From NCBI RefSeq assembly GCF_050920415.1, contig NZ_CP169309.1: DNA of 64,000 bases. The stretch is one strand, 5' to 3'. Positions 10,365-28,951 of this stretch are shown here, in pieces (position 1 is the stretch's first letter; each line of letters starts with the position of its first letter). The notes below the pieces were generated by a model. That model was not told the DNA's origin. It saw only the letters and a list, made by a program, of their open reading frames with translations, and made no database searches. This DNA is from Escherichia coli (GTDB lineage: Bacteria > Pseudomonadota > Gammaproteobacteria > Enterobacterales > Enterobacteriaceae). Position numbers and translations under genes: made by a program.

Positions 10365-10395
10365 GGTTTCTCTTTCCACTAGACAGATACACTGG

Positions 10396-10422
10396 TTGTC
10401 GGCCTGGTGGTGGAAAACTTTA
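10396..10422 (-). promoter_or_regulatory. sigma-28 (FliA) class III flagellar promoter for tsr
   Basis: On the minus strand the sequence reads TAAAGTTT-N11-GCCGACAA, a near-consensus match to TAAAGTTT-N11-GCCGATAA, about 30 bp upstream of the tsr start. Confidence 0.6.
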
Positions 10423-10503
10423 TGCTGTGGAAAAGCGTCGGCACTGCTTTTGTTGCAGCAAACTTGCGTTTTTTGTGAGGGTCACACTCTATAGCGGCAG
10501 TTT

Positions 10504-11409
10504 ATGGTACAAAGTATCAATCTTCTTCGAACCAGTGATACTCCTATGGCTTATAGCATCGATATCATCTCCTGCATTACCGAACGATTTATGGCGTTAA
10601 CAGCCACTGAAAAGCGTATCGCACAATTTATTCTTGATGACGTCTCTGCCGCAGTAGAGTTGCCAATTGCTGAGCTGGCACGGTTAACGCAAACCAGTCA
10701 GGCGTCGGTGACGCGTTTTGCCCGTGCACTGGGGTGCAAAGATGTCCGCGAGTTGAAAGTCAAACTGGCGCAGTCACTGGCTGTCGGGCAGCGGTTTATT
10801 CTCGATGTACCGGATCTTGACGGTGTTCAGGGGATCTACGAAGCGATTATTAGCGTGCTGGAAACGCATCGTCGTTCGCTGGATATGAATGCCATCAGCC
10901 AGGCTGTAAGCTGGTTAAGTCAGGCGCGGCAAATTCTTGCGTTAGGAACTGGCGGCGGTTCCACTATCTGTTCACAGGAGATTCAGTACCGTTTATTCCG
11001 TCTGGGGCTACCAGTGGTCAGTCAGAATGATGCCCTGATGATGAGAATGATGTGCTCGGCAGTGATGCCGCAGGATGTGGTGATTGTGCTGTCGCTGGGC
11101 GGTTATACACCGGAAATCATCGAAAGTGCGGCAATCGCCCGTCAGTATGGCGCGCGTGTTATTGCCATTACGCCAGCACAAACACCGCTGGCAGAACAGG
11201 TAGATCTGGTATTGCCGCTGCTGGTTCAGGAGAGTGATTACATCTTTAAACCCACGCCTTCCCGCTACGCGATGTTAGCCATGGTCGATGTACTGGCAAC
11301 GGAACTGGCAATGGCAAATAAAGCGCAGGCGAAAGATCGCCTGCGGCGGATAAAACTGGTGTTAGACAGCCACCGTGGGGGCGCTAACCGCCAGCCACTT
11401 GGCGATTAG
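10504..11409 (+). CDS. RpiR/MurR-family transcriptional regulator (HTH plus SIS sugar-phosphate-binding domain)
   Basis: 301 aa ORF; the domain pattern is recognised by eye. The start is uncertain, with an alternative ATG at 10546. Confidence 0.75.
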   Translation: MVQSINLLRTSDTPMAYSIDIISCITERFMALTATEKRIAQFILDDVSAAVELPIAELARLTQTSQASVTRFARALGCKDVRELKVKLAQSLAVGQRFILDVPDLDGVQGIYEAIISVLETHRRSLDMNAISQAVSWLSQARQILALGTGGGSTICSQEIQYRLFRLGLPVVSQNDALMMRMMCSAVMPQDVVIVLSLGGYTPEIIESAAIARQYGARVIAITPAQTPLAEQVDLVLPLLVQESDYIFKPTPSRYAMLAMVDVLATELAMANKAQAKDRLRRIKLVLDSHRGGANRQPLGD

Positions 11410-11418
11410 CATTGTCGG

Positions 11419-12888
11419 TTATGCTTCTTCAGGTTTGGTGATCACGACACTCTGGTTTTCACGCTCATTGGTGATAATAGCCAAAGCTTCTTCCCGGCTG
11501 ACCTGACTTGCTGGCGTTACCAACGTCACCAGTACGCCAGCGACCAGGCTGCCCAGCACTGACGGAATACACGGGTTACCCCAGTAAGCCAGCCAGTCGG
11601 CATTCATCAGCACCACAATTGACATCACCATACCGCTCACTAACGCCGCCAGCGCGCCCTGCCAGTTAAAGCGTAGCCAGAAGCGACCGAGAATCGAGCA
11701 GATAAACAGCCCGGACATCAGCATCGAAATCATTTTGGTAATGTAGCTGATGATGTCATTAGAGGTCAGAGCAAAGACCAGCGCCAGGCCAATAACAAAG
11801 GTCAACATCCAGCGTGAGTAAGTAATGGCCTTGTCCTCCGGCGGCATTCTGCCGGTAATCATGGTGTAGACGTCGCGCATCATAATCGCCACTGCCGCAA
11901 TGGCATCAGAACTGGCAGAAGACATGGTGGCAGAAAGCCCGGCAATCAGCACCACCAGCCCAAGAATGGCAGGTAAGAAGCTGGTCGCGAACAAGAAGGC
12001 ATAGTTACTGTTTTCCAGATTCGGGTTCATGGTGAACGCCGCCATGCCGATAATGGCAGGCAGAATCGAGAAGAACAGATACAACACGCCAGTAATAACA
12101 AATGAACGCCGTACAGAGGGAACGTCTTTTCCCGAGTAAATACGCTGGCGATAAGATGGTGTGGCCAGTACGCCGACACCAATAACCAGCGCCAGCGAAA
12201 GCGCAGGCAGCACGCCCATTTTATCAATCGCAAACAGGCTCATCGCTTTTGGGTCCATCGCCTGCTCAATCGCACTCCAGCCACCAACGTGAACAACGGC
12301 AAGAATAGCCATTAATATAAAGCCAAAGAACAGAATTAGGGCCTGAATGGTATCGGTCCACACTACCGCCGAATAACCGCCGATAATAACGTAAATCGCA
12401 AAAGCTAAGGCAATAATTAATTTTGCCACCGTAAGATCAATACCTGTTGCCCAGGCAAGATACATACTTCCACCTAATATATGCGCCCCCAGCCAGCCAA
12501 TAGAGGCAATAAATATCATCATGCCGACAATGTTTTTAATTAAATGACTGCCGCCAGTATAATAAGATATTTCTTCACTCATGGTCATAAAACGTAATTT
12601 ACGTACCGGTGCAAACAGCCACGCCACCAGTAATATACCTACGGCCCCACCGACGCCATAAAGCATTCCGGCCCAGCCATTGCTGTAGCCAAAGCCCACT
12701 GCGCCCATACTGGAACCCGTGCCAACCATCGTGGCAACGGTTGACCCCAGCGTCAGAAACAGCGGCAGCGAACGCCCGCCCAGCAGAAAATCTTCTCCGC
12801 TTTTCTGATTACGAGAAACAAACCAACCAAGCCAAATCATGGCGATGGCATAAATAATAAAGCCGACTAAAAAGATATGACTGTTCAT
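11419..12888 (-). CDS. sodium:solute symporter (SSS) family transporter
   Basis: 489 aa ORF, highly hydrophobic with multiple TM segments, PutP/PanF-like N-terminus, and an AGGA Shine-Dalgarno before the ATG. Confidence 0.8.
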   Translation of the reverse strand: MNSHIFLVGFIIYAIAMIWLGWFVSRNQKSGEDFLLGGRSLPLFLTLGSTVATMVGTGSSMGAVGFGYSNGWAGMLYGVGGAVGILLVAWLFAPVRKLRFMTMSEEISYYTGGSHLIKNIVGMMIFIASIGWLGAHILGGSMYLAWATGIDLTVAKLIIALAFAIYVIIGGYSAVVWTDTIQALILFFGFILMAILAVVHVGGWSAIEQAMDPKAMSLFAIDKMGVLPALSLALVIGVGVLATPSYRQRIYSGKDVPSVRRSFVITGVLYLFFSILPAIIGMAAFTMNPNLENSNYAFLFATSFLPAILGLVVLIAGLSATMSSASSDAIAAVAIMMRDVYTMITGRMPPEDKAITYSRWMLTFVIGLALVFALTSNDIISYITKMISMLMSGLFICSILGRFWLRFNWQGALAALVSGMVMSIVVLMNADWLAYWGNPCIPSVLGSLVAGVLVTLVTPASQVSREEALAIITNERENQSVVITKPEEA

Positions 12889-12990
12889 AATTCACATCCT
12901 GCCAGTAGAGAGAGAATAATGTAAGAGTTCCCGGAGTGCTGAATGTATTCAGCACTCAATTGCGGTCTGTTTTTTTAATTCTTAAATTTA

Positions 12991-13386
12991 TTAGCGGGTC
13001 GCGTTATAACAGGTCACATCGACTTCGACTTTACAATCGACAACCAGATCAGCCACACAACAAATACGTGCAGGCGGATTCTCGCCAAAAAATTCTCTGA
13101 ATACTTTATTAAATGACTGGAAATAGCGGGCGTCGGTCAGGATCACTTTCACGTGAACCACATCCGCCAGGCTATAACCGGCTTCAGTCATGATGTCGAC
13201 ACAGTTTTGGATCGCCAGTCGTGACTGTTCAACGATTCCGCCTTCTACCACTTCACCGTTTTTCATGGGTGTTTGCCCGGAGACGTACAGCCAGCCGCCC
13301 GCCTCAACCGCCCTGGCAAAAGGCAAATGCTGCCCGCCAGTGCCTGTTCCACCTTCCGTACCGTAACGTTTAATGCTCATATTCAC
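12991..13386 (-). CDS. RidA/YjgF/TdcF-family enamine/imine deaminase
   Basis: 131 aa ORF with a conserved Rid-family C-terminal region; the stop is 3 bp from the start of the upstream deacylase gene. Confidence 0.8.
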   Translation of the reverse strand: MNMSIKRYGTEGGTGTGGQHLPFARAVEAGGWLYVSGQTPMKNGEVVEGGIVEQSRLAIQNCVDIMTEAGYSLADVVHVKVILTDARYFQSFNKVFREFFGENPPARICCVADLVVDCKVEVDVTCYNATR

Positions 13387-13389
13387 TCC

Positions 13390-14841
13390 TTAATGTGAGG
13401 TCTGCCGGCGCAGGAAGCGTCCCGCACGGCCTGTAATATGTTTATCGCGACCATAGCTCATAACGCCGTTCACCATCACCGCCTCAATGCCATCTGCCGG
13501 GCGTTTGGGATCAGAAAAGCTGGCAACATCACGAATGGTTTGTGGATCGAACAACACCAGGTCCGCAAAATAGCCAACTTTCACCAGTCCACGCTGGGGC
13601 AGGCGAAAACGGCTGGCAGAAAGCCCGGTCATTTTGTGGATAGCCGTGGTCAGAGGGAATAAACCTTCATCACGGCAATAGTGACCCAGCACGCGAGGGA
13701 AGGCGCCCCATAAACGTGGATGCGGCATGGGATCATTGGGCAGGCCGTCAGAGCCAATCATACTGACTGGATAACTCAATACTCTGCGGACGTCGCGCTC
13801 GTCCATGTTGTAATAGATAGCCCCGGCAGGCATTAGCAGCTTCGCGGCCTCCAGCATACTCATCTGCCAGTCGATGGCGATTTGCGCCAGTGTTTTCCCG
13901 GCCTGCTGCGGATGTGTTTGTGACCAGGTGATCACAATATCGAATTCGTCGGTGACTTGTTTGAGATCCAGCGTTGAAGAGCTGGCTGAGTAAGGGTAGA
14001 CATCGCAGCCAATTTCCTGGTGTTGACGCATTTGGTCAAAAAAAGCCAACGTTTCTTTTGTCCGCCCCCAGTTTTTCGCCCCGGCGCATTTATGGTGGGA
14101 AACCACGACAGGCACTTTGCCATGACGCCCAATACGAAACGCCTCATCCAGGGCATCGAGAATCGGTTCAAATTCAGAACGCAGATGGGTGGTATAAACG
14201 CCCTTCTCACCGGCTAATTCTTCCGCCAGCGCCATGACTTCTTCGGTAGTCGCCTGAAATGCTGTGGCATAGGCCAGCCCGGAACTTAACCCCAGCGCCC
14301 CCTGACTCAACGCCAGACGTAAGTCGGCGCGCATGGCGGCAATTTCATCCGCCGTCGCCGGGCGAAACAGGTCGTCCATATGGTTATTACGCAGCGCCGT
14401 ATGACCAATCAGCGTGCCAACGTTCAGTGACGGCCTGGCTGCTTCCACTGCCTGGGCATAGCTTTCAACGGTAGGATAAATAAAGTGCTCCGCTTCCCCC
14501 AACAGATTCATCGGGTCAGGAACTTCGCCTTTCATTTTCGCCGACGCCGCACTGATCCCGCAGTTACCGACAATCACCGTGGTGATCCCCTGGCTGATTT
14601 TTGGCAGATATTCCGGGATGCGAATAACGTTGATATCGTCATGGGTATGAACGTCGATAAACCCTGGTGCCAGCACCCGCCCTTCCCCGTCAATGACCTG
14701 CTGCGCCGTAACGTTAAGCGCAGGGGCAATATCGACAATCCGATCACCTGTTATTGCCACGTCACCGCGAAATTCAGGGCCGCCGCTACCGTCGATAACG
14801 GTCACATTTTTGATTAACCAGTCAACCTGCATGTTCGTCAC
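13390..14841 (-). CDS. N-acyl-D-amino-acid deacylase (D-aminoacylase) family amidohydrolase
   Basis: 483 aa ORF with a metal-dependent amidohydrolase N-terminus (DGxG...PGFIDVHTHDD) typical of D-aminoacylases. Confidence 0.8.
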   Translation of the reverse strand: MTNMQVDWLIKNVTVIDGSGGPEFRGDVAITGDRIVDIAPALNVTAQQVIDGEGRVLAPGFIDVHTHDDINVIRIPEYLPKISQGITTVIVGNCGISAASAKMKGEVPDPMNLLGEAEHFIYPTVESYAQAVEAARPSLNVGTLIGHTALRNNHMDDLFRPATADEIAAMRADLRLALSQGALGLSSGLAYATAFQATTEEVMALAEELAGEKGVYTTHLRSEFEPILDALDEAFRIGRHGKVPVVVSHHKCAGAKNWGRTKETLAFFDQMRQHQEIGCDVYPYSASSSTLDLKQVTDEFDIVITWSQTHPQQAGKTLAQIAIDWQMSMLEAAKLLMPAGAIYYNMDERDVRRVLSYPVSMIGSDGLPNDPMPHPRLWGAFPRVLGHYCRDEGLFPLTTAIHKMTGLSASRFRLPQRGLVKVGYFADLVLFDPQTIRDVASFSDPKRPADGIEAVMVNGVMSYGRDKHITGRAGRFLRRQTSH

Positions 14842-15032
14842 TCCATTTCTGCAATGGTGACAAGTTAACCATTTACAAGGATGAAAAACAGTGGAAAACT
14901 ACGCAAAACCCAGATGATTTTATGATACTTTTATTCATAAACTATAAGATAAATAAACTAAATATTTATATTTCATTTAGTTACAAATGATACTCACATC
15001 CGATACGGTGAAAAACTTAAAAGGTAAATGTT

Positions 15033-16253
15033 ATGAAATACCACTCAGAACCTCTGGTTCCCCATAAATCGGCCCTGATGCAAATGCCCGCAAATCTCCT
15101 TGCCGAAGATGTCTGTTTACCTGCCGCGATCATTAAAAAGCAGGCCCTGGAGAACAACATTACGTGGATGCAGCGTTATGCTGACGCGCGCGGCGTTTCG
15201 CTGGCACCGCACGGTAAAACCACCATGACGCCGTGGATTTTTCAGGCGCAGCAGGCGGCTGGTGCCTGGGCAATAGGTGTCGGTAGCGCATGGCAGGCTG
15301 GTGCGGCAATGGCGAGCGGTATTCAGCGAGTGCTGATGGTTAACCAGCTGGTCGGCAAGGCGAATATGCAGTTGATTGCCCGGTTGCAACAACATTACCC
15401 GACGGTCGATTTTATCTGCTGTATCGACAGCATTGAGAACGCCCGCGCTTTGTCTGCCTTTTTTGCCAGTCAGCAACAGACACTGAACGTGATGATTGAG
15501 CTGGGTGTTCCCGGCGGACGCTGTGGTTGCCGCTCAACGGATGCCGCACTGGCACTGGCTAAACAGGCGGCCCAATTACCAGGGCTACGTCTGCGCGGGC
15601 TTGAGTTATATGAAGGTGTTTTACACGGTGACGATCCACAACCGCAGGTAGAAGCTCTGCTGCGGGATGCCGCACAACTGGCCTGTGATATGGCAAGTCT
15701 GGTTGATGGCGAGTTTATTCTCACCGGAGCAGGCACGGTCTGGTATGACGTGGTGTGCAATATCTGGCTGGCGGCAGAAAAGCCTGATAACTGCCGCATT
15801 GTTATTCGCCCTGGCTGCTACATCACTCACGACACCGGGATCTACGACGCGGCACAACAACAGTTGCTTGCCCGCGATCCTGTGGCCTGCGATCTTGCAG
15901 GCGATCTCACATCTGCGCTGGAACTGGTCGCCATGGTGCAATCGGTGCCGGAAGCTGATCGTGCGGTGGTAAATTTTGGTAAGCGTGATTGCGCCTTCGA
16001 CGCCGGACTGCCGCAACCAGTCGCCCACTACCGCAACGGCAAATCACTGGCATTTGATCCACAGGCGATTCGCAGTACAGGTATTATGGATCAGCACTGC
16101 ATGTTGCAACTGTCAGCTAATAGCGACGTGCAAGTGGGGGATATTCTGGTGTTTGGCACATCGCATCCGTGCCTGACCTTCGACAAATGGAAAACGTTGT
16201 TATTGGCTGATGACGACTACAACGTACTGGCAGAGCTGGATACGCTGTTTTGA
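15033..16253 (+). CDS. PLP-dependent enzyme of the alanine-racemase fold (DSD1-like D-serine or D-threo-hydroxy-amino-acid dehydratase/aldolase type)
   Basis: 406 aa ORF with an N-terminal region containing the HGKT lysine motif characteristic of fold-type III PLP enzymes; divergent from the deacylase-RidA-transporter operon. Confidence 0.7.
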   Translation: MKYHSEPLVPHKSALMQMPANLLAEDVCLPAAIIKKQALENNITWMQRYADARGVSLAPHGKTTMTPWIFQAQQAAGAWAIGVGSAWQAGAAMASGIQRVLMVNQLVGKANMQLIARLQQHYPTVDFICCIDSIENARALSAFFASQQQTLNVMIELGVPGGRCGCRSTDAALALAKQAAQLPGLRLRGLELYEGVLHGDDPQPQVEALLRDAAQLACDMASLVDGEFILTGAGTVWYDVVCNIWLAAEKPDNCRIVIRPGCYITHDTGIYDAAQQQLLARDPVACDLAGDLTSALELVAMVQSVPEADRAVVNFGKRDCAFDAGLPQPVAHYRNGKSLAFDPQAIRSTGIMDQHCMLQLSANSDVQVGDILVFGTSHPCLTFDKWKTLLLADDDYNVLAELDTLF

Positions 16254-16261
16254 TAGCGCAG

Positions 16262-16283
16262 ATGGCGGGTTCCTTCCCGCCAT
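16262..16283. terminator. hairpin between convergent genes (ATGGCGGG-loop-CCCGCCAT)
   Basis: Inverted repeat read directly in the 58 bp gap. Confidence 0.45.
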
Positions 16284-16311
16284 TAATTGTATGTATATCC
16301 TTAAGTATCTA

Positions 16312-17322
16312 TCAGCTACTTATGGATCGAATATCATCATAGATTGACTGGCTGATCTCTACCCCCTGTTGCTCACTGCGCAATCGTGCCTGGTAGCGAC
16401 GTTCTCCCGGCAGGCGCGCGCCCTGAGCCTGCATCTGACTAAACAGCGTTTCCGCCCTTGCCAGATGCCTCCCTGCATCCTCACCAAGAAAACGCTGCGG
16501 ATCGAGTGCCAGGATCAACTCTCCACCATACGGCAAACCACCTGCACCGTTATCCCACGCAAGAGACTCAGCACTGGTCATATCGCCAATCAGTGGTCCC
16601 GCAATCAGCTCCACCATCGCTGCCAGTGCCGAACCTTTATGACCGCCGAAGGTTAACATTGCTCCGTCCAACACAGCTTGTGGATCGGTGGTGGCATTGC
16701 CATGGCTGTCGATCCCCCAACCTTCAGGAAGTGATTTCCCGGCTCGCTGATGTAACTGAATCTCCCCGCGTGCCGCCGCACTGGTCGCCATATCAAAAAT
16801 AAATGGCGGCAGCTTGTCGCGCGGCCAACCAAACGCGATTGGGTTAGTACCAAAAAGAGGTTTGCCCCCCCCTTTCGGCGCAACCCAGGCATGGCTTGGC
16901 GTGGTCGCCAGCGCCACCAGTCCGGCTTCAGTCAGCGGTTCAACATCCGCAAATAAGGCGGAGTAGTGAACACAATGATTAATTGCCAGTGCTGCAATCC
17001 CGCACTGACGCGTTTTCTCGATCAGTAACGGTAGTGCCTGCTGATAAGCCAACAGCGAATAGCCACCTTTGGCATCGGCCTTAACGATTGCCGGAGCCTG
17101 AGATTCCACTGTCGGCAGAGCATCGGCAGAGACTTTCCCTTTTCGCAGCGTGTCAACAATCCCCAGCAGTCGCCATAAACCGTGCGAGGCACAACCGTCG
17201 CGCTCCCCGGCGGTAACGTTTTTCGCGATCACCACTGCATGTTGCTCACTAAATCCGTTACTAATGAGCGCATGATAGGCTAGTGCGTAAGCCTCTGATA
17301 ACGAGAGGATTACTCTATCCAT
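16312..17322 (-). CDS. Ldh_2-family (malate/L-lactate dehydrogenase-like) oxidoreductase, delta1-pyrroline-2-carboxylate or delta1-piperideine-2-carboxylate reductase-like
   Basis: 336 aa ORF resembling the Ldh_2 family, which includes Pyr2C/Pip2C reductases and ureidoglycolate dehydrogenase. Confidence 0.7.
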   Translation of the reverse strand: MDRVILSLSEAYALAYHALISNGFSEQHAVVIAKNVTAGERDGCASHGLWRLLGIVDTLRKGKVSADALPTVESQAPAIVKADAKGGYSLLAYQQALPLLIEKTRQCGIAALAINHCVHYSALFADVEPLTEAGLVALATTPSHAWVAPKGGGKPLFGTNPIAFGWPRDKLPPFIFDMATSAAARGEIQLHQRAGKSLPEGWGIDSHGNATTDPQAVLDGAMLTFGGHKGSALAAMVELIAGPLIGDMTSAESLAWDNGAGGLPYGGELILALDPQRFLGEDAGRHLARAETLFSQMQAQGARLPGERRYQARLRSEQQGVEISQSIYDDIRSISS

Positions 17323-17333
17323 TTTCTACTCCT

Positions 17334-18935
17334 TTATTCTTCTTCATCCCCGTTAAAGTTCGCCCGAGGAAGACAGGTGTATGCGCCCCAGTAATAAATT
17401 CCCAACGACATCAGCGCGACGACGATAGTATCCCACGGGTGCCCTATAATGCCGCTACCGCCAAAGCTACCCAGCCAGGAAAACAGCATAATCAGGGCAT
17501 AGAAGGCAATAAGCCACAATGAAGATTTAATCTGCTGCGCCAGGCTGACATGCTGAACAGGCACTTTCGACTTGCAACTCACGTAAACCACAAACATTAC
17601 GATTTGTAGCCCCAGCAGCCAGGAAAGCGTCCCCCAACCAGACCAAAAAACAATCAGTGCGGAAATCATAAAAGAGAGTGGGCCAAGCACCGCAAAACCA
17701 CGAACGCGGAACGGGCGCGGCATATCAGGTGCATTACGGCGCAGTCCTGCAGCTGTAACCGGCGCGATGGCGTAGCTCAGTACCAGAGCCGCAGAAACCA
17801 CGCTAATCAATTGCTCCCACGACGGGAACGGTAGCGTCCAGAAGATAGATAAACCAAACGTCAGCCACAGTGCCGGACGTGGAATACCTGACTCCTTATC
17901 GATATGAGTAAAGGTTTTAAAGAATGTCCCCGCCTTCGCCCAGCCATAGATCACACGCGGTGTCGCATTCATGTAAATATTGCCAGTGCCGCTGGGAGAC
18001 ACAATAGCATCACATACCACCATAAATGCCAGCCAGCCCATCCCGAGAGTAATGGCGATATCGCGATATGGCAGCGAATAGTTCTTACTGATCTCCGCCC
18101 AACCACCACTTAGCGATTCAGTTGGAATACTGCCCAAAAAGGCGACCTGCAACAGAACGTAGATGATGGTCGAGAGAATTACCGAGAGGATCAGCGCAAA
18201 TGGGATGGTACGTTGCGGATTTTGCGCCTCGCTGGCTACGGAGATAATCGGTGTCAGTCCAAGGTAAGCGAAGATAATCCCACCCGCGCTAATTGCCGCT
18301 TCCACTCCTGACATACCAAATGGAGCCATACCCTGTATATGCAGATTCTCCGGTTTGAAGAAGGCAAATAACGTTATTACCACCAGCAACGGCACCAGAA
18401 ACTTCAGCACGCTAATAAAATTGTTCGAGCGAGCGAAAGTTTTAACACTGTAGTAGTTCAGGGCAAAAAAGAAGCACAACAGTAAGAACTGCACCACCCA
18501 GCCTAACAGCGTCGGGTCACTACTCCCCGTCTGCGTCAGCGCAGGAAACCAGGCGGCGGCATATTGCCGTGCGGCTACAATCTCAATGGAGATCAGGCTG
18601 GAGAAGGCAATCAGGGTAATAAAACCCAGCAGATAGCCCATCAATTCGCCGTGCGAAAATACCGGGTAACGAATAATACCGCCCGCGCGGGGAAGCGCCG
18701 CCCCCAGTTCGCAGTAAATAATCCCCAGTAGCAGCACCGCAAAACCGCCAATAACCCAGGAAGCAATCCCTGCTGGGCCAGCGATCGATGCGACATGGCT
18801 GGCAGCAAACAGCCAGCCAGAACCGAAAATCGCCCCCAGACCAATAAAGGTCAAGTCGGTGAGCGTTAACTGCTTTTTAAACTTCCCCGACTCAACAACG
18901 ACGGTTTGCGTGCTTTGGGTAGAAGGAATTGTCAT
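17334..18935 (-). CDS. APC-superfamily amino-acid permease
   Basis: Polytopic membrane protein. The start was moved to the internal ATG at 18935 to remove a 40 bp overlap with the upstream gene. Confidence 0.8.
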   Translation of the reverse strand: MTIPSTQSTQTVVVESGKFKKQLTLTDLTFIGLGAIFGSGWLFAASHVASIAGPAGIASWVIGGFAVLLLGIIYCELGAALPRAGGIIRYPVFSHGELMGYLLGFITLIAFSSLISIEIVAARQYAAAWFPALTQTGSSDPTLLGWVVQFLLLCFFFALNYYSVKTFARSNNFISVLKFLVPLLVVITLFAFFKPENLHIQGMAPFGMSGVEAAISAGGIIFAYLGLTPIISVASEAQNPQRTIPFALILSVILSTIIYVLLQVAFLGSIPTESLSGGWAEISKNYSLPYRDIAITLGMGWLAFMVVCDAIVSPSGTGNIYMNATPRVIYGWAKAGTFFKTFTHIDKESGIPRPALWLTFGLSIFWTLPFPSWEQLISVVSAALVLSYAIAPVTAAGLRRNAPDMPRPFRVRGFAVLGPLSFMISALIVFWSGWGTLSWLLGLQIVMFVVYVSCKSKVPVQHVSLAQQIKSSLWLIAFYALIMLFSWLGSFGGSGIIGHPWDTIVVALMSLGIYYWGAYTCLPRANFNGDEEE

Positions 18936-18946
18936 AGTGATGCCCT

Positions 18947-20557
18947 TCAATGAGTCAACAAGGAGGAAATGGCTTCCCGGGTCCACTGGCCGTTAACCAA
19001 GCGCAGCAGGTTTAATGGATTACTGTCCTGCAGCGCAGGCGGTAATAGTGCAGCGGGTGCATTTTGCAGGCATACCGGGCGCAGAAAACGAGTAATGGCC
19101 AGCGTGCCTACGGACGTGCCGCGCGCGTCGGTGGTTGCCGGGAACGGACCACCGTGTACCATGGCATCGCAAACCTCGACGCCGGTGGGATAGCCATTGA
19201 ACAATACGCGTCCGGCTTTATCAGCCAACAATGGCAATAAACGACCAGCCAGTTGCCGGTCATCCTCATCCGCCTGAAGTGTGGCAGTAAGTTGCCCTTG
19301 CAGAGCGTTAATTACCTGCAACAACTCCGCTTCATCAGCGGCTTCAACCACAATCGCGAGCGGCCCGAACACTTCCTCCTGCAACAGAGGATCTTTTTCA
19401 AGTATGTTTGCCGCCTGAGCCTGATAGAGACGAGTTTCTGCTCGTCCGGCTTGATGATTATCGTCCCCCGCCAAACACCGAATAGTCGGATGTTCTGCCA
19501 GTTTCTCCACGCTGTGGCGATAGTGCTCAAGCGTGGAGGCGTTTAGCATGAGTTGCGGTGTGGCGGCATTCACTTTCTCAACCAGTTGCTGTAAAAAGTC
19601 CGCGTTTTTCTCCCCTTTCAGCAACACAATCAGGCCTGGTTTAGTGCAGAACTGTCCACATCCCAACGTGAACGACGCGACTAAATCGCGGGCCAGCGTA
19701 TCGGCACGTACTGATAGCGCCTGCGGCAGAATGAAAAAGGGATTGAGAGCCGACATTTCGGCAAAAACCGGTATCGGCTGTGGACGCTGTTGGGCCAAAC
19801 GAAAGAGCGCCATGCCACCACGTAATGAGCCGGTAAAACCCACCGCCTGAATTGCGGGATGTTTCACCAGTTCAGCACCGATATCAGTACCGAAAATCAT
19901 ATTGAATACGCCTGCGGGCATGGCGCATTTAGTCACGGCACGAGCGATCGCTGATGCGATAATTTCTGCCGTTGCCATATGCCCAGGATGCGCTTTCACA
20001 ACTACCGGGCATCCTGCAGCCAGTGCCGCTGCTGTATCACCACCGGCGATAGAAAAAGCGAGTGGAAAGTTGCTGGCACCAAATACCGCCACCGGCCCGA
20101 GAGCCGTTTTATACTGGCGCAAATCCGGTCGAGGCAGAGGCTGACGCTCCGGCAACGCAGTATCAATTCTTACCTCAAACAGATCGCCCCGACGTAATAA
20201 CCCGGCAAACATGCGCATCTGCCCGCTGGTTCTTGCCCGCTCTCCCTGTAAACGCGCCAGGGGTAACGCTGTCTCCTGATGTGCCGTAGCGAACAGTTCG
20301 TCGCCTGCTGCATCAAGTTCATCGGCGATGGTTTCTAAAAAATCGGCACGTTGCCCGGCATTGGTCAGTGAATAGCACACAAAAGCCTGCTGCGCCGCAA
20401 TAGCCGCCTGCTCGGCCTCCTCCACGGAGGCCGGGTAAAAACGTTGCCCGGTAGGTTCGCCATCCTGCGCTCGCAGGCTGACCAGCGACGGTTCACCGCT
20501 GGCAACACGTTGCCCGGCGATGAACTGTTGCCCGGTGAAAGGGAAAGTTTCAGTCAT
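18947..20557 (-). CDS. NAD(P)-dependent aldehyde dehydrogenase, 2,5-dioxovalerate (alpha-ketoglutarate semialdehyde) dehydrogenase-like
   Basis: 536 aa ALDH-superfamily protein with catalytic Cys context (GQFCTKPG) and a length typical of KGSADH. Confidence 0.8.
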   Translation of the reverse strand: MTETFPFTGQQFIAGQRVASGEPSLVSLRAQDGEPTGQRFYPASVEEAEQAAIAAQQAFVCYSLTNAGQRADFLETIADELDAAGDELFATAHQETALPLARLQGERARTSGQMRMFAGLLRRGDLFEVRIDTALPERQPLPRPDLRQYKTALGPVAVFGASNFPLAFSIAGGDTAAALAAGCPVVVKAHPGHMATAEIIASAIARAVTKCAMPAGVFNMIFGTDIGAELVKHPAIQAVGFTGSLRGGMALFRLAQQRPQPIPVFAEMSALNPFFILPQALSVRADTLARDLVASFTLGCGQFCTKPGLIVLLKGEKNADFLQQLVEKVNAATPQLMLNASTLEHYRHSVEKLAEHPTIRCLAGDDNHQAGRAETRLYQAQAANILEKDPLLQEEVFGPLAIVVEAADEAELLQVINALQGQLTATLQADEDDRQLAGRLLPLLADKAGRVLFNGYPTGVEVCDAMVHGGPFPATTDARGTSVGTLAITRFLRPVCLQNAPAALLPPALQDSNPLNLLRLVNGQWTREAISSLLTH

Positions 20558-20572
20558 AATCTCTCCCCCACC

Positions 20573-21514
20573 TCAAAGGCCCACGTCCGGCAGCGCAGGG
20601 CGAGTCGCCAGCGATTTCTCAACGATCGCCACAACCTGGGCACGCGTTTCGCCTTCCAGCGCCAGACGCGGCGGGCGAGTAACCTCACTGCCACGCCCCA
20701 ACAGGGCTTCACACAGCTTGATACACTGCACCAGGTCAGGGCGCGCATCGAGATGTAGCAGTGGCATAAACCAGCGATAGAGCGCCATAGCCTCGGCAAA
20801 ACGCTGTTGTTTTGCCAAACGGAACAACGTCTCACCTTCGCGTGGGAAGGCGTTTGACATCCCGGAAATCCAGCCTTCAGCGCCCACCGCAATGCTCTCA
20901 ACCACGACATCGTCCAGCCCGGCAAACAGCACAAAGCGATCGCCTACCGCATTGCGAAGATCGATAAAGCGCCGGGTATCACCAGAGGAATCTTTAAAGC
21001 AGACGATATTTTCGCAATCAGCTAGTGTTTCCAGGATATCAGGGGTGACATCGTTTTTATAAATCGGAGGGTTGTTATAGACCATGATCGGCAGGTCGGT
21101 CGCCATTGCCACACTGCGGAAGTGCGCTGCAGTTTCATGAGGCTTAGATGAGTAAACCAAAGCAGGCATCACCATAACGCCATCAACACCGACCTTCTCG
21201 GCCTCTTTTGCCATCGTCCGGGCAAAGGCAGTGGTGAACTCAGCAACCCCGGCAATCACCGGAATTTTTCCGCCAGCAGCATCTTTCGCTACTTCGATGA
21301 TTTGCAGTTTTTCCTGAGTGGTAAGTGACGTGTTTTCTCCAACGCTGCCGCACACTACCAGGCCAGAAACCCCATCTTTAACCAAGTTTTTCATCACCGC
21401 ATGTGTGGCATCCAAATCAAGTGAGTAATCACTACGGAACTGAGTGCTAACCGCCGGAAAAACGCCACTCCAGTTAATCGCTTTATTGCTCATCTTTGGT
21501 TTCCTTATTGTCAA
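20573..21514 (-). CDS. DapA/DHDPS-family lyase, candidate delta1-pyrroline-4-hydroxy-2-carboxylate deaminase
   Basis: 313 aa ORF of the dihydrodipicolinate synthase/N-acetylneuraminate lyase family; the specific function is inferred from the neighbouring epimerase, oxidase and KGSADH genes. Confidence 0.75.
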   Translation of the reverse strand: MTIRKPKMSNKAINWSGVFPAVSTQFRSDYSLDLDATHAVMKNLVKDGVSGLVVCGSVGENTSLTTQEKLQIIEVAKDAAGGKIPVIAGVAEFTTAFARTMAKEAEKVGVDGVMVMPALVYSSKPHETAAHFRSVAMATDLPIMVYNNPPIYKNDVTPDILETLADCENIVCFKDSSGDTRRFIDLRNAVGDRFVLFAGLDDVVVESIAVGAEGWISGMSNAFPREGETLFRLAKQQRFAEAMALYRWFMPLLHLDARPDLVQCIKLCEALLGRGSEVTRPPRLALEGETRAQVVAIVEKSLATRPALPDVGL

Positions 21515-21644
21515 TCTGTTGCGTCAATGTGAATTAAAAGTGAATCTTCATTAACAGATTGACCTCTCCTTGCGCTGGCGGCTTGTCGATTTTCTTTCCC
21601 CAGGATGACGAAATTAGCACAATGCCCAGTTGTGATTTGTCGTG

Positions 21645-22472
21645 TTACCCCATCAACGTCATCCGAAAATCACGCGGAGTTGAGCCTGTCATCGCCTTAA
21701 ATTGACGGCTGAACGCACTATGGTCGGTATAACCGCACTGCAAAGCGATATCGGTAATCGGCGTAGTTCCGGCAAGTAACTCGGTGGCCTTTTCCAGTCG
21801 AACTTTGTGGATCATCTGGCGAGGCGTCAGGTGAAAAATCCGCTTACAGTAGCGTTCAATTTGCGCCACAGACATTCCGCTCATTTCAGTCAACTCTTCC
21901 ATAGAGATCGCACGGTAGTAGTGATTGCGAATGTGCTCATCGATGATCGCCAGGCGTTGCCAGGCTGGATGACGCGCATGTGCTTCCTGGAGATCATGTG
22001 AGATCCCCGCCATTCCGATCACACGCCCCTGCATATCGCGCAGTGCCAGTTTCTGCGTCAGACACCAGCCGCGTTCGCGACCGTTATAGAGATGCATCTC
22101 TAGTTGATCACGTAACGCAACCCCTTCGCGTAGCACACGCAGATCCTGTTCGGTATATCCTCGTCCCAATGCAGAAGGGAAAACATCTGCCGATGTCTTC
22201 CCCAGTAGCGATGTCACATTTTTAAACCCGCAGCGTCGCGCCAACGTCATATTGACTAACAGATAACGGGCCTGCATATCCTTAATAAAAAACACCACAT
22301 TAGGAATGGCGTTGAGAAGTGGCGCAATCAGCGCCAGTGCATTTAACAACGCCTGAATATTTTGTGGACGCTGCCGCGCCAGCCCCTCGCAAATCTGACT
22401 AAGTTCATCAACGGCCAGCGCAGTTTCTTCACAAGGGGAAAACTCAAAAGTCTGATGACATATGCTGGACAT
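21645..22472 (-). CDS. AraC-family transcriptional regulator
   Basis: 275 aa ORF with a C-terminal AraC-type double helix-turn-helix; divergent from the epimerase operon. Confidence 0.85.
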   Translation of the reverse strand: MSSICHQTFEFSPCEETALAVDELSQICEGLARQRPQNIQALLNALALIAPLLNAIPNVVFFIKDMQARYLLVNMTLARRCGFKNVTSLLGKTSADVFPSALGRGYTEQDLRVLREGVALRDQLEMHLYNGRERGWCLTQKLALRDMQGRVIGMAGISHDLQEAHARHPAWQRLAIIDEHIRNHYYRAISMEELTEMSGMSVAQIERYCKRIFHLTPRQMIHKVRLEKATELLAGTTPITDIALQCGYTDHSAFSRQFKAMTGSTPRDFRMTLMG

Positions 22473-22783
22473 AGTTGTTCCTCATAGCGATTGAGGATGA
22501 ATGTTTATTAACCTTTGATTAACATGACAAGTACTGAAAGTGCATTTTGCGATCCTTCCGTGTATTTCCACTTTCCGTTGCTCTCACTACTGACGAACGC
22601 TTGTTCCTGGTCTAACACATCACTAACAAAATGATTAATATTAAAAAAACATGACCACTCCTGGTGTCGCGAAATAATTCACTGTGCTGATTTCGTCATT
22701 TCCCTTGCAGAAACCCTTCAAGCGATAAAGTTGCAATTACGCCAGCATTTAGAAACATTTTGTTAACCACATGGAGCCAGAGC

Positions 22784-23731
22784 ATGCATGTTCCTCACCA
22801 AATCACTGAACTCAGGGCTATCGACTCCCATACCGGAGGCGAGCCGACCCGGTTGATTATTGATGGCTTTCCCGATCTCGGTAGCGGCAGCATGGCCGAA
22901 CGGCGCGAACGTTTTACCCGGGAATTTGACTGTTGGCGCAAAGCCATAATTCTTGAGCCACGCGGCAACGACGTGCTGGTCGGCGCGCTACTGTGTGAGC
23001 CGCTTTCCCCTCATGCCACGGCGGGTGTCATCTTTTTCAATAATGCCGGATACCTGAATATGTGTGGGCACGGCACTATCGGGCTTGTTGCCTCACTGGC
23101 CTGGTTGGGTCGTATTAAACCGGGCGTTCATCGCATTGAAACCCCTGTCGGAGATGTAAACGCCACATTGCATGATGATGGCAGTGTGTCAGTTGAAAAT
23201 GTTCCGGCCTGGCGCTGGCAAAAACAGGTAAGTGTGGAAACAGCGGTGGGTACAGTTACAGGAGATATCGCCTGGGGTGGTAACTGGTTTTTTCTTATTA
23301 ATGATCATCCATTTGATATTGTGCCGGAACAAATCCCGCAGTTAACTGAATACGCCTGGGCGGTACGGGAAGGGCTCGATAATGCGGGGATCGTCGGTGA
23401 AAACGGTGGCATTATCGATCATATCGAACTTTTTGCCGATGACGATCAGGCGGATAGCCGTAGCTTCGTCCTTTGCCCAGGTAAAGCGTGGGATCGTTCT
23501 CCCTGTGGCACAGGCACCAGCGCCAAGCTGGCCTGTCTGGCAGAAGACGGAAAACTCGCCCCCGGCGATAGCTGGCGCCAGGCCAGTATTATTGGTAGCC
23601 AGTTTACGGCTCACTATACCCGCCATGGCGAGAAGATTATCCCCACCATTCGTGGAGAAGCCTGGGTATGCGGCGACAATCGCCTGCTCCTTAATCCGGA
23701 CGATCCCTTCTGCTGGGGGATTAGCCTGTGA
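22784..23731 (+). CDS. proline racemase family enzyme, 4-hydroxyproline 2-epimerase-like
   Basis: Two catalytic Cys motifs (MCGHG and SPCGTGTSA) typical of the proline racemase / 4-Hyp epimerase family; GGAG Shine-Dalgarno before the ATG at 22784. Confidence 0.85.
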
Positions 23732-24837
23732 ACAGCACGGAGGTCATTGTCATCGGCGCAGGCATCATCGGGGCCTCCTGCGCATGGCAACTGGCAAAAC
23801 GTGGTGTGAGAGTCACGCTAATTGACAACGGCCGAGCCGGAGCGACAGCTGCAGGAATGGGGCATCTGGTCTGTATGGATGATGATCCCGCAGAACTGAC
23901 GCTCTCTGCCTGGTCGCTGGAACTGTGGCGCACGTTGACGCCTCAGTTACCGGAAAGCTGTGCCTGGTGCGGCTGTGGCACATTGTGGCTGGCGGAAACA
24001 CCAGAAGAACTGGAAATTGCCCGAGAGAAGCAGCGACGTCTGGCATCGCATGAGGTCAACAGCGAAATGCAAAGCGCTGCACAATTGGCTGAGCGGGAAG
24101 TTATGCTACGCCCGGGGTTATCCGGCGGGTTATGGGTGCCGGGCGATGGCATCGTCTACGCCCCAAACGTTGCCCGTTGGTTTATTGCCAATGCAGGCGA
24201 TAAGCTGACACATCTGGTTGATCCGGCCATTCGTCTGGAAGAACCTACAGTGACATTACAGAGCGGTCGCCAATTACGCGCCGATGCGATCGTCGTCGCC
24301 TGTGGTCTGGGGGCCAATACGTTACTGGGGGAGCCATGGCTGCGCGCGAAGAAAGGCCAACTTGCGATTACCGATCGCTATGGTCCACTAGTCAATCACC
24401 AACTGGTTGAACTTGGCTACGGCGCCAGTGCTCACGGCAGCGGCACGTCAGTGGCCTTTAATGTGCAGCCTCGTCCCACCGGACAACTGCTGATTGGCTC
24501 TTCACGTCAGTTCGATAACGAGGATCGCGAACTGGACCTTCCACTCCTGGCCGCGATGCTGTCCAGAGCGCAACACTTTCTGCCGTCTCTGGCAACGCTC
24601 AATATTATTCGTTGCTGGAGCGGTTTTCGCGCCGCCTCGCAGGATGGTAATCCCCTTCTCGGCCCGCATCCTTCCCGTGCTGGCGTCTGGCTGGCTCTTG
24701 GTCATGAAGGGCTTGGAGTGACTACTGCCCCCGCCAGCGCGTCGCTGTTAGTCGCACAGTTGCTGGGTGAACGCAGCCTCGTATCTCCTGCCCCCTGGCT
24801 ACCCGCAAGACTTATCTCCCTGGAGGCCAGCGCATGA
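23728..24837 (+). CDS. FAD-dependent oxidoreductase (DadA/HcnC/OoxB-like), candidate D-hydroxyproline dehydrogenase beta subunit
   Basis: N-terminal FAD dinucleotide-binding motif [14 protein letters not shown]; the GTG start overlaps the upstream stop, suggesting translational coupling. Confidence 0.8.
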
Positions 24838-25097
24838 GTGGCACCATTAGAATTTTTATTGCCGGACAGCCCTGGTTTGTCCCGACGGGTATTAGCGTAG
24901 CGGCGGCACTGGCCTTAACTGATAACCCCATTACGCGCCTTTCGGTGAGCGGGCAACCACGTACGCCCTTCTGCGGCATGGGCGTTTGCCAGGAGTGTCG
25001 GGTGAGCGTTAATGGTCGTCGGGTACCCGGTTGTCAGACCCTTTGCCAGCCAGACATGCAGATTGAAAGGAGCGGATATGCAGACCTTACAGTGTGA
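24834..25097 (+). CDS. small [2Fe-2S]-binding subunit (HcnA / sarcosine-oxidase-alpha N-terminus-like)
   Basis: 87 aa ORF with a Cys cluster (CGMGVCQEC...GC); ATGA overlap with the upstream gene. Confidence 0.65.
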   Translation: MSGTIRIFIAGQPWFVPTGISVAAALALTDNPITRLSVSGQPRTPFCGMGVCQECRVSVNGRRVPGCQTLCQPDMQIERSGYADLTV

Positions 25098-26343
25098 CAT
25101 TTTAATTCTCGGTGCAGGCCCGGCGGGGCTATCAGCGGCTCTGGCCGCAGCAAAGTGCGATAAGCAGGTCATCATCCTTGATGATAATCCGCTTCCTGGC
25201 GGTCAAATCTGGCGCGATGGTCCACAAAGTCAGCTTCCTCCACTGGCCCGCCATTACCGTGATGCCGTTGCCAACGAATCGCGGATTCGTGTGCTCAACG
25301 GAGCGAGGTTAATCGCCCGCCGCAGCGAAAATTGTGTACTGTTCGAAACTGCAGAAGACTACGGCACAGTAAGCTGGAATAAGCTGATTCTCTGCTGCGG
25401 CGCACGTGAACTTGCATTACCGTTTCCAGGCTGGACGCTGCCCGGTGTCAGTGGCGCGGGTGGGCTACAGGCACAAATGAAACAGGGGCTGCACATGGCA
25501 AATCAAAAAGTGGTTATTGCCGGAAGTGGGCCACTATTACTGGCCGTTGCTGACACCGTTCGCCGTGCCGGAGGCGAAGTGGTGGCGATTGTGGAACAAG
25601 CCCCACGCGCAGCGCTATTGCGCTTTGGCTTCGGACTATGGCGTTGGCCGGGTAAGCTGCGCCAACTGGCGACACTATTTCCTCGTCGTTATCTCAGTGC
25701 AAGCCAGGTTATCGCTGCACACGGCGACGCCACATTGCGTGCTGTCACCCTCCGACACAATGGTAGGGAAATCACACTGCCATGCGACAAATTAGCTATT
25801 GGCTATGGTCTAGTGCCTAATCTTGAACCTGGGTTGTTCTTCAGTTGTGCCATCAGCAATGATGCCGTGCAGGTGGATGAACTGCAGCGAACCTCGGTTA
25901 AAAACATCTATGCAGCCGGTGAATGTACTGGATTTGGTGGCAGTGAACTGGCGCTGATAGAAGGTGAAATAGCCGGACTTTGTGCGGCCGATCGCGCCCA
26001 TGAAACAAAGTTTCTGCAACAAAAACGCACCAGGTGGCAGCGCTTCGCCCTCGCGCTTCATAAAACCTTTGCCCTGCCCGAAAGTCTCAAGCGCGTTGCG
26101 ACACCAGAAACGCTGCTTTGCCGCTGCGAAGACATTCGCTGTGGCGATGTAGAGCAAGCACAAAGCTGGCTGCAGGCCAAATTAACGACCCGCTGCGGCA
26201 TGGGAGCCTGTCAGGGGAGAACCTGCGCCGCTACCGCACGATGGTTGTACGGCTGGCCATTACTGGAACCGCGAGCCCCCCTTTCCCCCTCTCGCAGCGA
26301 AACGTTAATTGCCCTGGCGCAACAACCACCTTCGCCACATTAA
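25078..26343 (+). CDS. FAD/NAD(P)-binding oxidoreductase with C-terminal BFD-like [2Fe-2S] domain (HcnB/OoxA-like), candidate D-hydroxyproline dehydrogenase alpha subunit
   Basis: N-terminal DILILGAGPAGLSAA motif and a C-terminal Cys cluster (CRCEDIRCGD...CGMGACQGRTC); strong AAGGAG Shine-Dalgarno before the ATG at 25078. Confidence 0.8.
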   Translation: MQTLQCDILILGAGPAGLSAALAAAKCDKQVIILDDNPLPGGQIWRDGPQSQLPPLARHYRDAVANESRIRVLNGARLIARRSENCVLFETAEDYGTVSWNKLILCCGARELALPFPGWTLPGVSGAGGLQAQMKQGLHMANQKVVIAGSGPLLLAVADTVRRAGGEVVAIVEQAPRAALLRFGFGLWRWPGKLRQLATLFPRRYLSASQVIAAHGDATLRAVTLRHNGREITLPCDKLAIGYGLVPNLEPGLFFSCAISNDAVQVDELQRTSVKNIYAAGECTGFGGSELALIEGEIAGLCAADRAHETKFLQQKRTRWQRFALALHKTFALPESLKRVATPETLLCRCEDIRCGDVEQAQSWLQAKLTTRCGMGACQGRTCAATARWLYGWPLLEPRAPLSPSRSETLIALAQQPPSPH

Positions 26344-26370
26344 ATCCCTGATAATAATTTGGCGTTAAGG

Positions 26371-26435
26371 GCTTATCTGGTCTGGTAAATCTTACAAATT
26401 CAATATATTGCAGAATCTATCCAGGCCAGATAAGC
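26371..26435. repeat. 15 bp imperfect inverted repeat (GCTTATCTGGTCTGG ... CCAGGCCAGATAAGC) at the right boundary of the tsr-btsT island
   Basis: Read directly; one mismatch between arms, about 35 nt spacer. Confidence 0.4.
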
Positions 26436-26535
26436 GTAGCGCAGCTGGCAATTATTGAGCCGTAAACGAGGAATCTACCCAGAAAAAATTTCGTGATCTC
26501 AATCACATATTAGCTCGATGAATAATTCTTGCCCA

Positions 26536-26584
26536 ACCGCTCACCGCCATTCCTGACCGCTTACGTCCCAAATATAACCACTCA
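26536..26584 (+). promoter_or_regulatory. candidate BtsR (YehT) response-regulator binding site: three direct repeats ACC(G/A)CT(C/T)A
   Basis: ACCGCTCA, ACCGCTTA and ACCACTCA with 12 and 13 bp spacers, 136-184 bp upstream of btsT; matches the recalled LytTR-type motif reported for the yjiY promoter. Confidence 0.45.

Positions 26585-28876: not shown

Positions 28877-28951
<75 letters not shown>

Follow-up and report, generated by a model that had tools for sequence, protein, structure and literature searches.

The closest described relatives of the DNA considered here are the ong cluster of Pseudoalteromonas prydzensis ACAM 620 (Jiang et al., 2022, PMC9537276; Wang et al., 2025, PMC12017989), the lhp/hyp clusters of Pseudomonas aeruginosa, Pseudomonas putida and Sinorhizobium (Watanabe et al.; PMC5144071, PMC4113996), and the hpa (4-hydroxyphenylacetate) cluster of Escherichia coli B, C and W. 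The segment that recalls them separates tsr from btsT in a 64,000-nucleotide stretch of E. coli DNA (contig NZ_CP169309.1 of assembly GCF_050920415.1), called the window below, to which all positions refer unless another locus is named. It spans positions 10425-26492 (16,068 bp), stands in place of a 135-bp filler of E. coli K-12, and consists of two self-contained catabolic parts: module A (10425-16234), with ong-type genes, and module B (16235-26492), with genes of the hydroxyproline (Hyp) type. Most probably, the segment is one allele of a multi-allelic interval that descends from an old enterobacterial array of ong, Hyp and hpa modules, and was not placed there by a mobile element.

The ong cluster of P. 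prydzensis has been dissected genetically. It comprises OngR, a MurR/RpiR repressor, OngIT, a sodium:solute symporter (SSS), OngD, a RidA protein essential for growth on N-acetyl-D-glucosaminate (GlcNAc1A), the deacetylase OngB, and OngC, a fold-type III pyridoxal phosphate (PLP) deaminase (PMC9537276). GlcNAc1A is a product of oxidative chitin cleavage, and ong clusters have been reported in Klebsiella and Serratia too (PMC9537276). Module A holds the same five core families, and its deacetylase keeps the binding and specificity residues of OngB. The gene layout differs, being ongCRBD in Pseudoalteromonas and R / IT-D-B / C in the window, and the block is devoid of the kdgK gene, the GH20 beta-hexosaminidase OngA and the TonB-dependent outer-membrane transporters of the Pseudoalteromonas cluster. 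The ong relatives in Klebsiella and Raoultella include DgoK/DgoA-type genes.

Module B shares with the lhp/hyp clusters the epimerase, a probable DHDPS-family deaminase, an aldehyde dehydrogenase (ALDH) and an MLD2-type reductase for delta1-pyrroline-2-carboxylate (Pyr2C); its dehydrogenase resembles the three-subunit type found in P. aeruginosa. In contrast to those clusters, it relies for uptake on a probable APC permease, not an ABC transporter, has a regulator of the AraC type, carries neither aconitase-X nor another 3-hydroxyproline dehydratase gene, and occupies a fixed chromosomal place beside tsr in Enterobacteriaceae.

The hpa cluster resembles the segment in its setting. Both are catabolic cassettes of 11-16 kb that lie in the same interval with the same boundaries, are absent from K-12 and include no mobility genes, and the GC content of hpa (54.3%) is near that of the segment. 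However, hpa encodes another pathway and is common (2,020/5,426 genomes), the ong+Hyp combination being rare (34 genomes). In the arrays of other genera, hpa stands on the right-hand side of module B. Integration and recombination hotspots likewise show alternative contents between two core genes, with mosaic flanks and without an integrase. Unlike such open-ended hotspots, the interval holds the same three modules, which recur in fixed order across genera and point to the decay of one array. No description of this tsr-btsT island was found in the literature searched.

Predicted pathways of the two modules

The RefSeq annotation names the products of module A a MurR/RpiR regulator, a sodium:solute symporter, a RidA protein, an “N-acyl-D-amino-acid deacylase family” protein (A4) and an “amino acid deaminase” (A5). 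Against structures in the Protein Data Bank (PDB), the top score of A4 (938 bits) belongs to an unnamed amidohydrolase (9g5m); the P. prydzensis deacetylase PpOngB (9kb1) reaches 561 bits, compared with 455-460 bits for D-aminoacylases (460 for 1m7j). The PpOngB structure defines 15 substrate-contact residues, among which Ser292 and Gln298 set GlcNAc1A deacetylases apart, D-aminoacylases having Thr at position 292 and Leu or Arg at 298 (PMC12017989). A4 keeps 14 of the 15, including both of these (S292 as S286, Q298 as Q292), in an ungapped alignment with a constant offset of 6. A5, encoded next to the OngB-type A4, has a domain architecture that fits OngC, a likeness read at the level of domains, and the counterparts of OngIT, OngD and OngR match at the family level.

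Based on the score and residues of A4, the architecture of A5 and the agreement of five families with the ong cluster, module A is predicted to be a reduced, five-gene ong cluster for an N-acetylated 2-amino-2-deoxy-aldonate, most likely GlcNAc1A. The symporter A2 would import this compound, A4 would then take off the acetyl group, and A5 would deaminate what is left. The 2-keto-3-deoxy sugar acid so formed could enter central metabolism by way of a kinase and an aldolase encoded in the core genome.

The database names of A4 and A5 point elsewhere, to the degradation of N-acyl-D-amino acids (e.g., N-acetyl-D-serine or N-acetyl-D-threonine) and not of an oxidised amino sugar. The bit scores of D-aminoacylases with A4 agree with those names, OngC itself also deaminates D-serine and D-threonine (PMC9537276), and a RidA protein would suit a dehydratase that produces enamines. 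Such a function is nevertheless unlikely, as A4 scores higher with PpOngB and has Ser and Gln where D-aminoacylases have Thr and Leu or Arg, and as PpOngB is inactive on N-acetyl-D-serine and N-acetyl-D-glutamate (PMC9537276). In addition, the regulator A1 is of the sugar-sensing RpiR/SIS type, and orthologous clusters hold a kinase and an aldolase for keto-deoxy sugar acids. In the ong versions of Klebsiella, Raoultella and Enterobacter these extra genes, a DgoK-like kinase and an aldolase, lie between symporter and regulator, and the aldolase passes the NCBIfam model for 2-dehydro-3-deoxy-6-phosphogalactonate aldolase (loci L026, 15961-17500; L022, 7100-8642; L040, 15913-17452).

Module B contains the full family set of the hydroxyproline pathway: epimerase, DAO, Fer2_4, Pyr_redox_2, DHDPS, ALDH and MLD2 (compare PMC4113996, PMC5144071). 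The epimerase B6 lies above the NF010577 equivalog cutoff (487.7 bits against 442), reaches 465-472 bits with the solved epimerases 4j9w and 2azp (the latter, PA1268, at 465), and keeps the catalytic Cys/Cys pair (MCGH at residue 93, SPCG at residue 239). Together with B7 it aligns with P. aeruginosa genes whose annotations are 4-hydroxyproline epimerase and lhpB. The cis-4-hydroxy-D-proline dehydrogenase of P. aeruginosa is a three-subunit enzyme (PMC5144071), to whose subunits B7, B8 and B9 are assigned at the family level (DAO, Fer2_4 and Pyr_redox_2). Members of the DHDPS family act in the hydroxyproline pathway, and MLD2 members that adjoin proline-racemase genes reduce the proline ketimine (PMC4113996). 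Strain MG1655, which shows no growth on 4-hydroxyprolines (PMC4113996), does not have module B.

Module B is therefore a candidate for a complete pathway from trans-4-hydroxy-L-proline to 2-oxoglutarate, in which B3 and B4 are placed by family and context. The permease B2 would import trans-4-hydroxy-L-proline, B6 would epimerise it to cis-4-hydroxy-D-proline, and B7-B9 would oxidise the latter as a three-subunit flavin/iron-sulfur dehydrogenase. The DHDPS-family enzyme B4 is predicted to deaminate and dehydrate the next intermediate, and B3 to oxidise 2-oxoglutarate semialdehyde to 2-oxoglutarate. The DpkA-like reductase B1 may serve related imino acids, and the AraC-family protein B5 probably regulates the module. 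B1 alone, with the rest of module B absent, adjoins tsr in Kluyvera (L012, L014, L019) and Pseudocitrobacter (L007, L008), and its survival there suggests that it has a function of its own.

Alleles and ancestry of the tsr-btsT interval

As the first-pass annotation stated, tsr and btsT are neighbours in K-12 MG1655, where the spacer measures 377 bp; the window is oriented in reverse of the K-12 map. Its statement that the intervening genes lack a K-12 counterpart at this position also stands, no DNA match to the block having been found in K-12. The limits it gave, 10380-26440, had to be moved: K-12 and the window are collinear up to 10424 and again from 26537, and an alignment of five alleles shifts the right limit to 26492. 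Instead of 13 genes in four transcription units, the segment has 14 genes in the RefSeq record NZ_CP169399 (E. coli MFDS1022581), which is 100% identical across the segment and served as the source of annotation. Orientation and gaps give five to six units (A1; A4-A3-A2; A5; B4-B3-B2-B1; B5, 151 bp from B4; and B6-B7-B8-B9, with overlapping reading frames). The break between the modules (16234|16235) falls inside the last codons of A5, as judged against strain SMS-3-5.

A survey of 5,426 complete E. coli genomes shows how these modules are distributed. The segment is matched in 195 of them: 34 have it whole, about 160 have only the first 5.85 kb (the ong-only allele), and one (BS-01) has just 45 bp beside tsr, so that module A occurs in 194. 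A K-12-like allele, defined by a junction probe coverage of at least 80%, is present in 3,116 genomes, a count that takes in the O157 form. The hpa cluster is found in 2,020 genomes; its location in the interval, as an 11-gene cluster, was checked in REL606 alone. The four allele counts together account for about 5,330 of the 5,426 genomes. A fifth allele, that of O157:H7, contains a 543-nt open reading frame annotated as a hypothetical protein (L005, 2129-2671).

The alleles share their left divergence point, 10424|10425, which lies 2 nt upstream of the -35 box of the tsr promoter in the five-allele alignment, and the junctions are base-identical across carriers. In the ong-only allele of SMS-3-5 the last seven codons of A5 (L002, 13856-13914, against window 16235-16256) keep the peptide ELDTLF with 7/24 synonymous differences. 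Next comes a terminator that has its right arm, and the sequence beyond it, in common with the REL606 hpa allele. In the ong+Hyp allele the 3′ end of A5 is as in Klebsiella, Raoultella and Enterobacter.

The same locus was traced in other genera by a scan with B1, one genome per species, which yielded 36 loci, to which the proteins of the 14 genes, those of the hpa cluster and the neighbouring core genes were then mapped. Read in window orientation, Raoultella ornithinolytica and Enterobacter sp. JUb54 have opgB - ong - Hyp - hpaR - hpaG and onwards, R. planticola and its relatives opgB - Hyp - hpa, and Citrobacter spp., Enterobacter soli and E. genomosp. O tsr - Hyp - hpaR - hpaG. Raoultella sp., Enterobacter sp. 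10-1 and K. pneumoniae have ong - B1 - hpa, Pseudocitrobacter tsr - B1 - hpa, Kluyvera tsr - B1 - btsT, and Escherichia sp. E1V33 tsr - ong - Hyp - btsT; in Serratia and Pragia the Hyp module stands in another context. At least six other enterobacterial genera, Kluyvera included, thus hold subsets of the modules at this locus, and the order and orientation of ong, Hyp and hpa are invariant in Raoultella, Enterobacter, Citrobacter, Klebsiella, Pseudocitrobacter and Escherichia. At the nucleotide level the modules are 73-77% identical to those of the other genera, slightly below the figure for opgB and tsr (78-81%), and protein identity declines from Enterobacteriaceae to Serratia and then to Pragia. 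Between B1 and hpaR, K. pneumoniae ATCC 13883 retains the final 31 codons of B2 together with C-terminal fragments of B9 in which the frame is broken (L022, 662-1192). These remnants are the scar of an internal deletion, left by a decayed hydroxyproline module.

Within Escherichia, divergence was taken at four-fold degenerate sites. Between the window and the ong-only SMS-3-5, module A differs by 0.066-0.068 and the flanks by 0.07-0.09; module A has therefore been in E. coli for as long as these lineages have been apart. Module B differs by 0.075-0.084 between E. coli and unclassified Escherichia, in line with the btsT-yjiA region on the right, which differs by 0.057-0.095. The 90%-identity cluster of the epimerase is confined to Escherichia (E. 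coli and several unclassified strains), that of the OngB-like protein includes E. fergusonii, and four further loci of unclassified Escherichia have the ong+Hyp-btsT layout. The carriers of the whole segment fall into two haplotypes, one comprising the window and two genomes, the other TW10598 and about 30. In module B the two are only 0.006 apart, as against 0.038 in module A and 0.037-0.056 in the flanks (Fisher p = 4e-9 and 1e-13), a divergence about 6 times lower. Because of this contrast, module B appears to have moved or swept recently between E. coli backgrounds, with module A and btsT as the evident anchors for recombination; the divergence of the flanks points to at least two carrier backgrounds.

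Escherichia sp. E1V33 was considered as the donor of module B and rejected, since the divergence of its copy, and of the copies in four other unclassified Escherichia, from those of the E. coli carriers is 0.075-0.084, against 0.006 among the carriers. Compared with window 6299-27197, E1V33 is itself strongly mosaic at four-fold sites (tsr and A1 0.36; A2-A5 mostly 0.16-0.20, with A3 at 0.03; module B 0.08). The start of its btsT shows 97% nucleotide identity, its lgoT only 82% protein identity.

From the order shared across genera and the scars in K. pneumoniae, an old array of ong, Hyp and hpa, lying between the tsr and btsT promoters, would have been trimmed differently by lineage. K-12 would have lost all three modules, and the alleles of E. 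coli would have been exchanged by homologous recombination through the flanks. The direction of these events is deduced from the distribution of the modules. Given the deletion scars in K. pneumoniae, the adjacency of tsr and btsT in K-12 is probably a derived, deleted state.

The interval could instead be a recombination hotspot into which ong, Hyp and hpa were inserted independently and repeatedly. Five E. coli alleles with exactly the same left breakpoint, the recent spread of module B, and the other context of module B in Serratia and Pragia all speak for repeated insertion, and the recoded 3′ end of A5, with the terminator common to the ong-only and hpa alleles, suggests recombination between alleles and not simple deletion. 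However, the order and orientation of the modules are invariant in six genera including Escherichia, the B2 and B9 remnants of K. pneumoniae record loss in place, and the modules have diverged in step with the core genes beside them, all of which makes independent insertion improbable.

Still less can be said for a classical genomic island, acquired recently from another genus by a mobile element. Its sporadic occurrence (the whole block in 34/5,426 genomes), its slightly raised GC content and the inverted repeat at its right end would fit, and sporadic distribution is indeed the one trait of such islands that was found. An integrase, attachment sites, flanking direct repeats and atypical composition are not seen. 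No tRNA and no Rfam family was found in the segment, no integrase or insertion sequence (IS) is annotated in the identical RefSeq record, and no direct repeats pair the two ends; the first-pass annotation was right about the lack of integrase, tRNA and IS. No close copy exists in the plasmid collection searched, the best matches being 65-70% identical, and the nearest copies outside Escherichia are 73-77% identical and sit at the same locus. An acquisition of this kind is very improbable. The description of a catabolic island inserted between tsr and btsT can be kept insofar as the segment is catabolic, accessory and absent from K-12, but not as an inserted foreign island, since it consists of two separable modules found at the same locus in other genera.

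Composition leads to the same view. The GC content is 53.0% in the segment (51.7% in module A, 53.8% in module B), compared with 50.8% in the left and 48.7% in the right flank, so the enrichment seen by eye is real by about 2 points. It is marginal, however, and does not extend to third codon positions: GC3 of the segment genes is 0.51-0.58, below tsr (0.60) and btsT (0.68). With 30 core genes of the same chromosomal region as reference, the Karlin codon bias B is 0.310 for the segment genes and 0.344 for the core genes (Mann-Whitney p = 0.94 for “greater”). Because GC, GC3 and Karlin bias do not deviate, there is no compositional signature of foreign origin. The first-pass annotation had itself named a lack of GC or codon-usage deviation as telling against its island, and with codon usage like that of local core genes this is in part what emerged.

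The 15-nt inverted repeat that it placed at the right boundary is real and resembles a repetitive extragenic palindromic (REP) sequence (26371-26385/26421-26435, 93% complementary). It belongs to a 96-bp element (26360-26455) that recurs, at about 80% identity, in 7-43 places (median 23) in 5,425 of the 5,426 E. coli genomes, for the most part outside annotated features, and it is unchanged in all carriers and in Escherichia sp. E1V33. The element is a REP pair of the bacterial interspersed mosaic element (BIME) type, an ordinary chromosomal repeat with about 23 copies per genome, and was rejected as an island terminus. As for the proposed acquisition by homologous replacement, the identical junctions and the flanks of TW10598, which are mosaic relative to K-12 (94-99.8% identity), favour it, with the difference that it concerns alleles of an old locus and not a new island.

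Strain BS-01 (GCF_044647575.1, NZ_CP172816; L046, 5986-6361, corresponding to window 10365-26719) gives rise to a further possibility. As far as both junctions its flanks agree with those of TW10598 (99.93% and 99.83% identity), but between them stands, instead of the 16-kb segment, a 135-bp filler 100% identical to that of K-12, with about 10 bp common at each switch point; in other empty-site strains 7-8 filler positions differ from K-12. BS-01 is either a precise cassette swap or a product of reference-guided assembly. Because it joins TW10598-like flanks to a K-12 filler, it raises the idea that tsr-btsT is a cassette-exchange site, at which whole modules are exchanged almost to the base pair while flanking polymorphisms stay behind. 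This idea is highly doubtful; if true, it would imply recombination on about 10 bp of shared sequence at two promoter-proximal junctions. That the rarity and modularity of the block as a whole reflect differences in assembly or annotation and not real alleles is scarcely credible, for although the BS-01 pattern could come from reference-guided assembly, 34 and about 160 independent complete genomes have base-identical junctions and the layout recurs in draft genomes of unclassified Escherichia.

Several points weigh against two catabolic modules inherited from an old array. With regard to function, no family of 2-keto-3-deoxygluconate (KDG) kinase, GH20 OngA or TonB-dependent OngOT occurs among the 14 genes, and the DgoK/DgoA-type, not KdgK/Eda-type, genes of the relatives hint at a galacto-epimer as a live alternative substrate. 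B3 and B4 have family-level matches only, specific models (for B3 including those of 2,5-dioxovalerate/alpha-ketoglutaric semialdehyde dehydrogenases) staying below their curated cutoffs. All substrates of modules A and B are assigned by homology and context, and their regulation is deduced from sequence. With regard to history, an identical left breakpoint in five alleles is unexpected from independent deletions unless the promoter constrains it. B1 was the sole query of the scan, which places genomes devoid of B1 outside the sample, and representatives of E. albertii, E. marmotae, E. ruysiae and Salmonella gave no match in it, so that many independent losses are needed.

Features of the window and its surroundings

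The features of the segment and its flanks are collected in the table. The sigma-28 consensus is TAAAGTTT-N11-GCCGATAA, with which the tsr promoter can be compared. The palindrome from 26493 onward is common to all non-K-12 alleles, with the direct repeat ACCGCTCA/ACCGCTTA further on; we take GTGATCTCAATCACA to be a putative CRP site and the direct repeat to be a putative BtsR site. Consensus scans for promoters and terminators gave sites no more frequent than in shuffled sequence, and were used for the hairpin between A5 and B1 alone.

Coordinates of the segment genes, control elements and core flanks in the window
Feature	Position	Strand	Basis
tsr, left core flank	8700-10364	-	RefSeq annotation; 97% identity with K-12 tsr
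tsr sigma-28-type promoter: TAAAGTTT, 11 nt, GCCGACAA	10396-10422	-	Sequence read
A1, MurR/RpiR regulator (OngR-like)	10546-11409	+	NCBIfam RpiR/HexR-type matches
A2, sodium:solute symporter (OngIT-like)	11419-12888	-	TIGR00813 SSS
A3, RidA family protein (OngD-like)	12991-13380	-	TIGR00004
A4, predicted OngB-type N-acetyl-aminoaldonate deacetylase	13390-14832	-	PDB match PpOngB; substrate residues
A5, fold-type III PLP deaminase (OngC-like)	15033-16253	+	Pfam Ala_racemase_N and D-ser_dehydrat; PDB 3gwq “D-serine deaminase”, 361 bits
Hairpin between convergent A5 and B1	16261-16284	+	Terminator scan
B1, Ldh_2 (MLD2) family, DpkA-like delta1-pyrroline/piperideine-2-carboxylate reductase	16312-17322	-	PDB 1wtj, 251 bits
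B2, APC-family amino-acid permease, probable hydroxyproline uptake	17334-18935	-	TIGR00909; role from context
B3, NADP+ aldehyde dehydrogenase, probable 2-oxoglutarate semialdehyde dehydrogenase	18947-20557	-	ALDH-family matches; RefSeq name
B4, DHDPS-family protein, probable delta1-pyrroline-4-hydroxy-2-carboxylate (Pyr4H2C) deaminase	20573-21493	-	DHDPS-family matches
B5, AraC-family regulator, PAS-like N-terminal part	21645-22472	-	NCBIfam; Pfam PAS_4 and HTH_18 on orthologue
B6, 4-hydroxyproline 2-epimerase	22784-23731	+	NF010577 equivalog; PDB 4j9w, 2azp
B7, DAO-family flavoprotein, cis-4-hydroxy-D-proline dehydrogenase beta-like	23728-24837	+	NCBIfam ThiO/DAO-type matches
B8, small [2Fe-2S] protein, gamma-like subunit	24834-25097	+	Pfam Fer2_4, 7e-17
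B9, Pyr_redox_2 flavoprotein, alpha-like subunit	25078-26343	+	Pfam; SoxA-subfamily match
BIME/REP-type extragenic repeat holding the 15-nt inverted repeat	26360-26455		Genome-wide copy count
Conserved btsT control region, start: palindrome GTGATCTCAATCACA (26493-26507); direct repeat ACCGCTCA/ACCGCTTA (26536-26543, 26556-26563)	26493-26563	+	Alignment and sequence read
btsT, right core flank	26720-28870	+	RefSeq annotation; K-12 alignment

Other differences are found near the site. The btsT 5′ leader carries an insert of about 125 bp resembling the enterobacterial repetitive intergenic consensus (ERIC) in REL606 (L004, about 14165-14290) and E1V33, which is absent from the window, K-12 and TW10598. 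The btsT-yjiX spacer (28877-29000) contains a classical REP pair and measures 127 bp, compared with 46 bp in K-12. Between 30200 and 41100, genes for BrnA and a truncated BrnT, a restriction endonuclease, a different type I restriction-modification system, symE and a GmrSD-type enzyme replace mrr-hsdRMS-mcrBC of K-12. Further stretches at about 49700-51800 and 54300-59600, which do not align with K-12, hold a gene for a pentapeptide-repeat protein and the inverse autotransporter gene iatD.

Meaning for E. coli and its relatives

The block is ordinary insofar as both of its catabolic clusters are of known kinds and the interval was already known to vary. What is added here is the function proposed for module A, the modular structure, the allele frequencies and the evidence that the K-12 adjacency is derived. 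For module A, the database names “D-aminoacylase / amino acid deaminase” would give way to an ong-type pathway for a sugar acid. Carriers are predicted to use two growth substrates that K-12 does not, hydroxyproline, which collagen supplies, and an oxidised N-acetyl amino sugar derived from chitin. Both traits would occur in a small group of E. coli strains, among them enterotoxigenic E. coli (ETEC) O6:H16 challenge strains and poultry isolates. The textbook adjacency of tsr and btsT in K-12 is probably the end state of the decay of a three-module array, through loss and reshuffling that would have proceeded without mobile elements.

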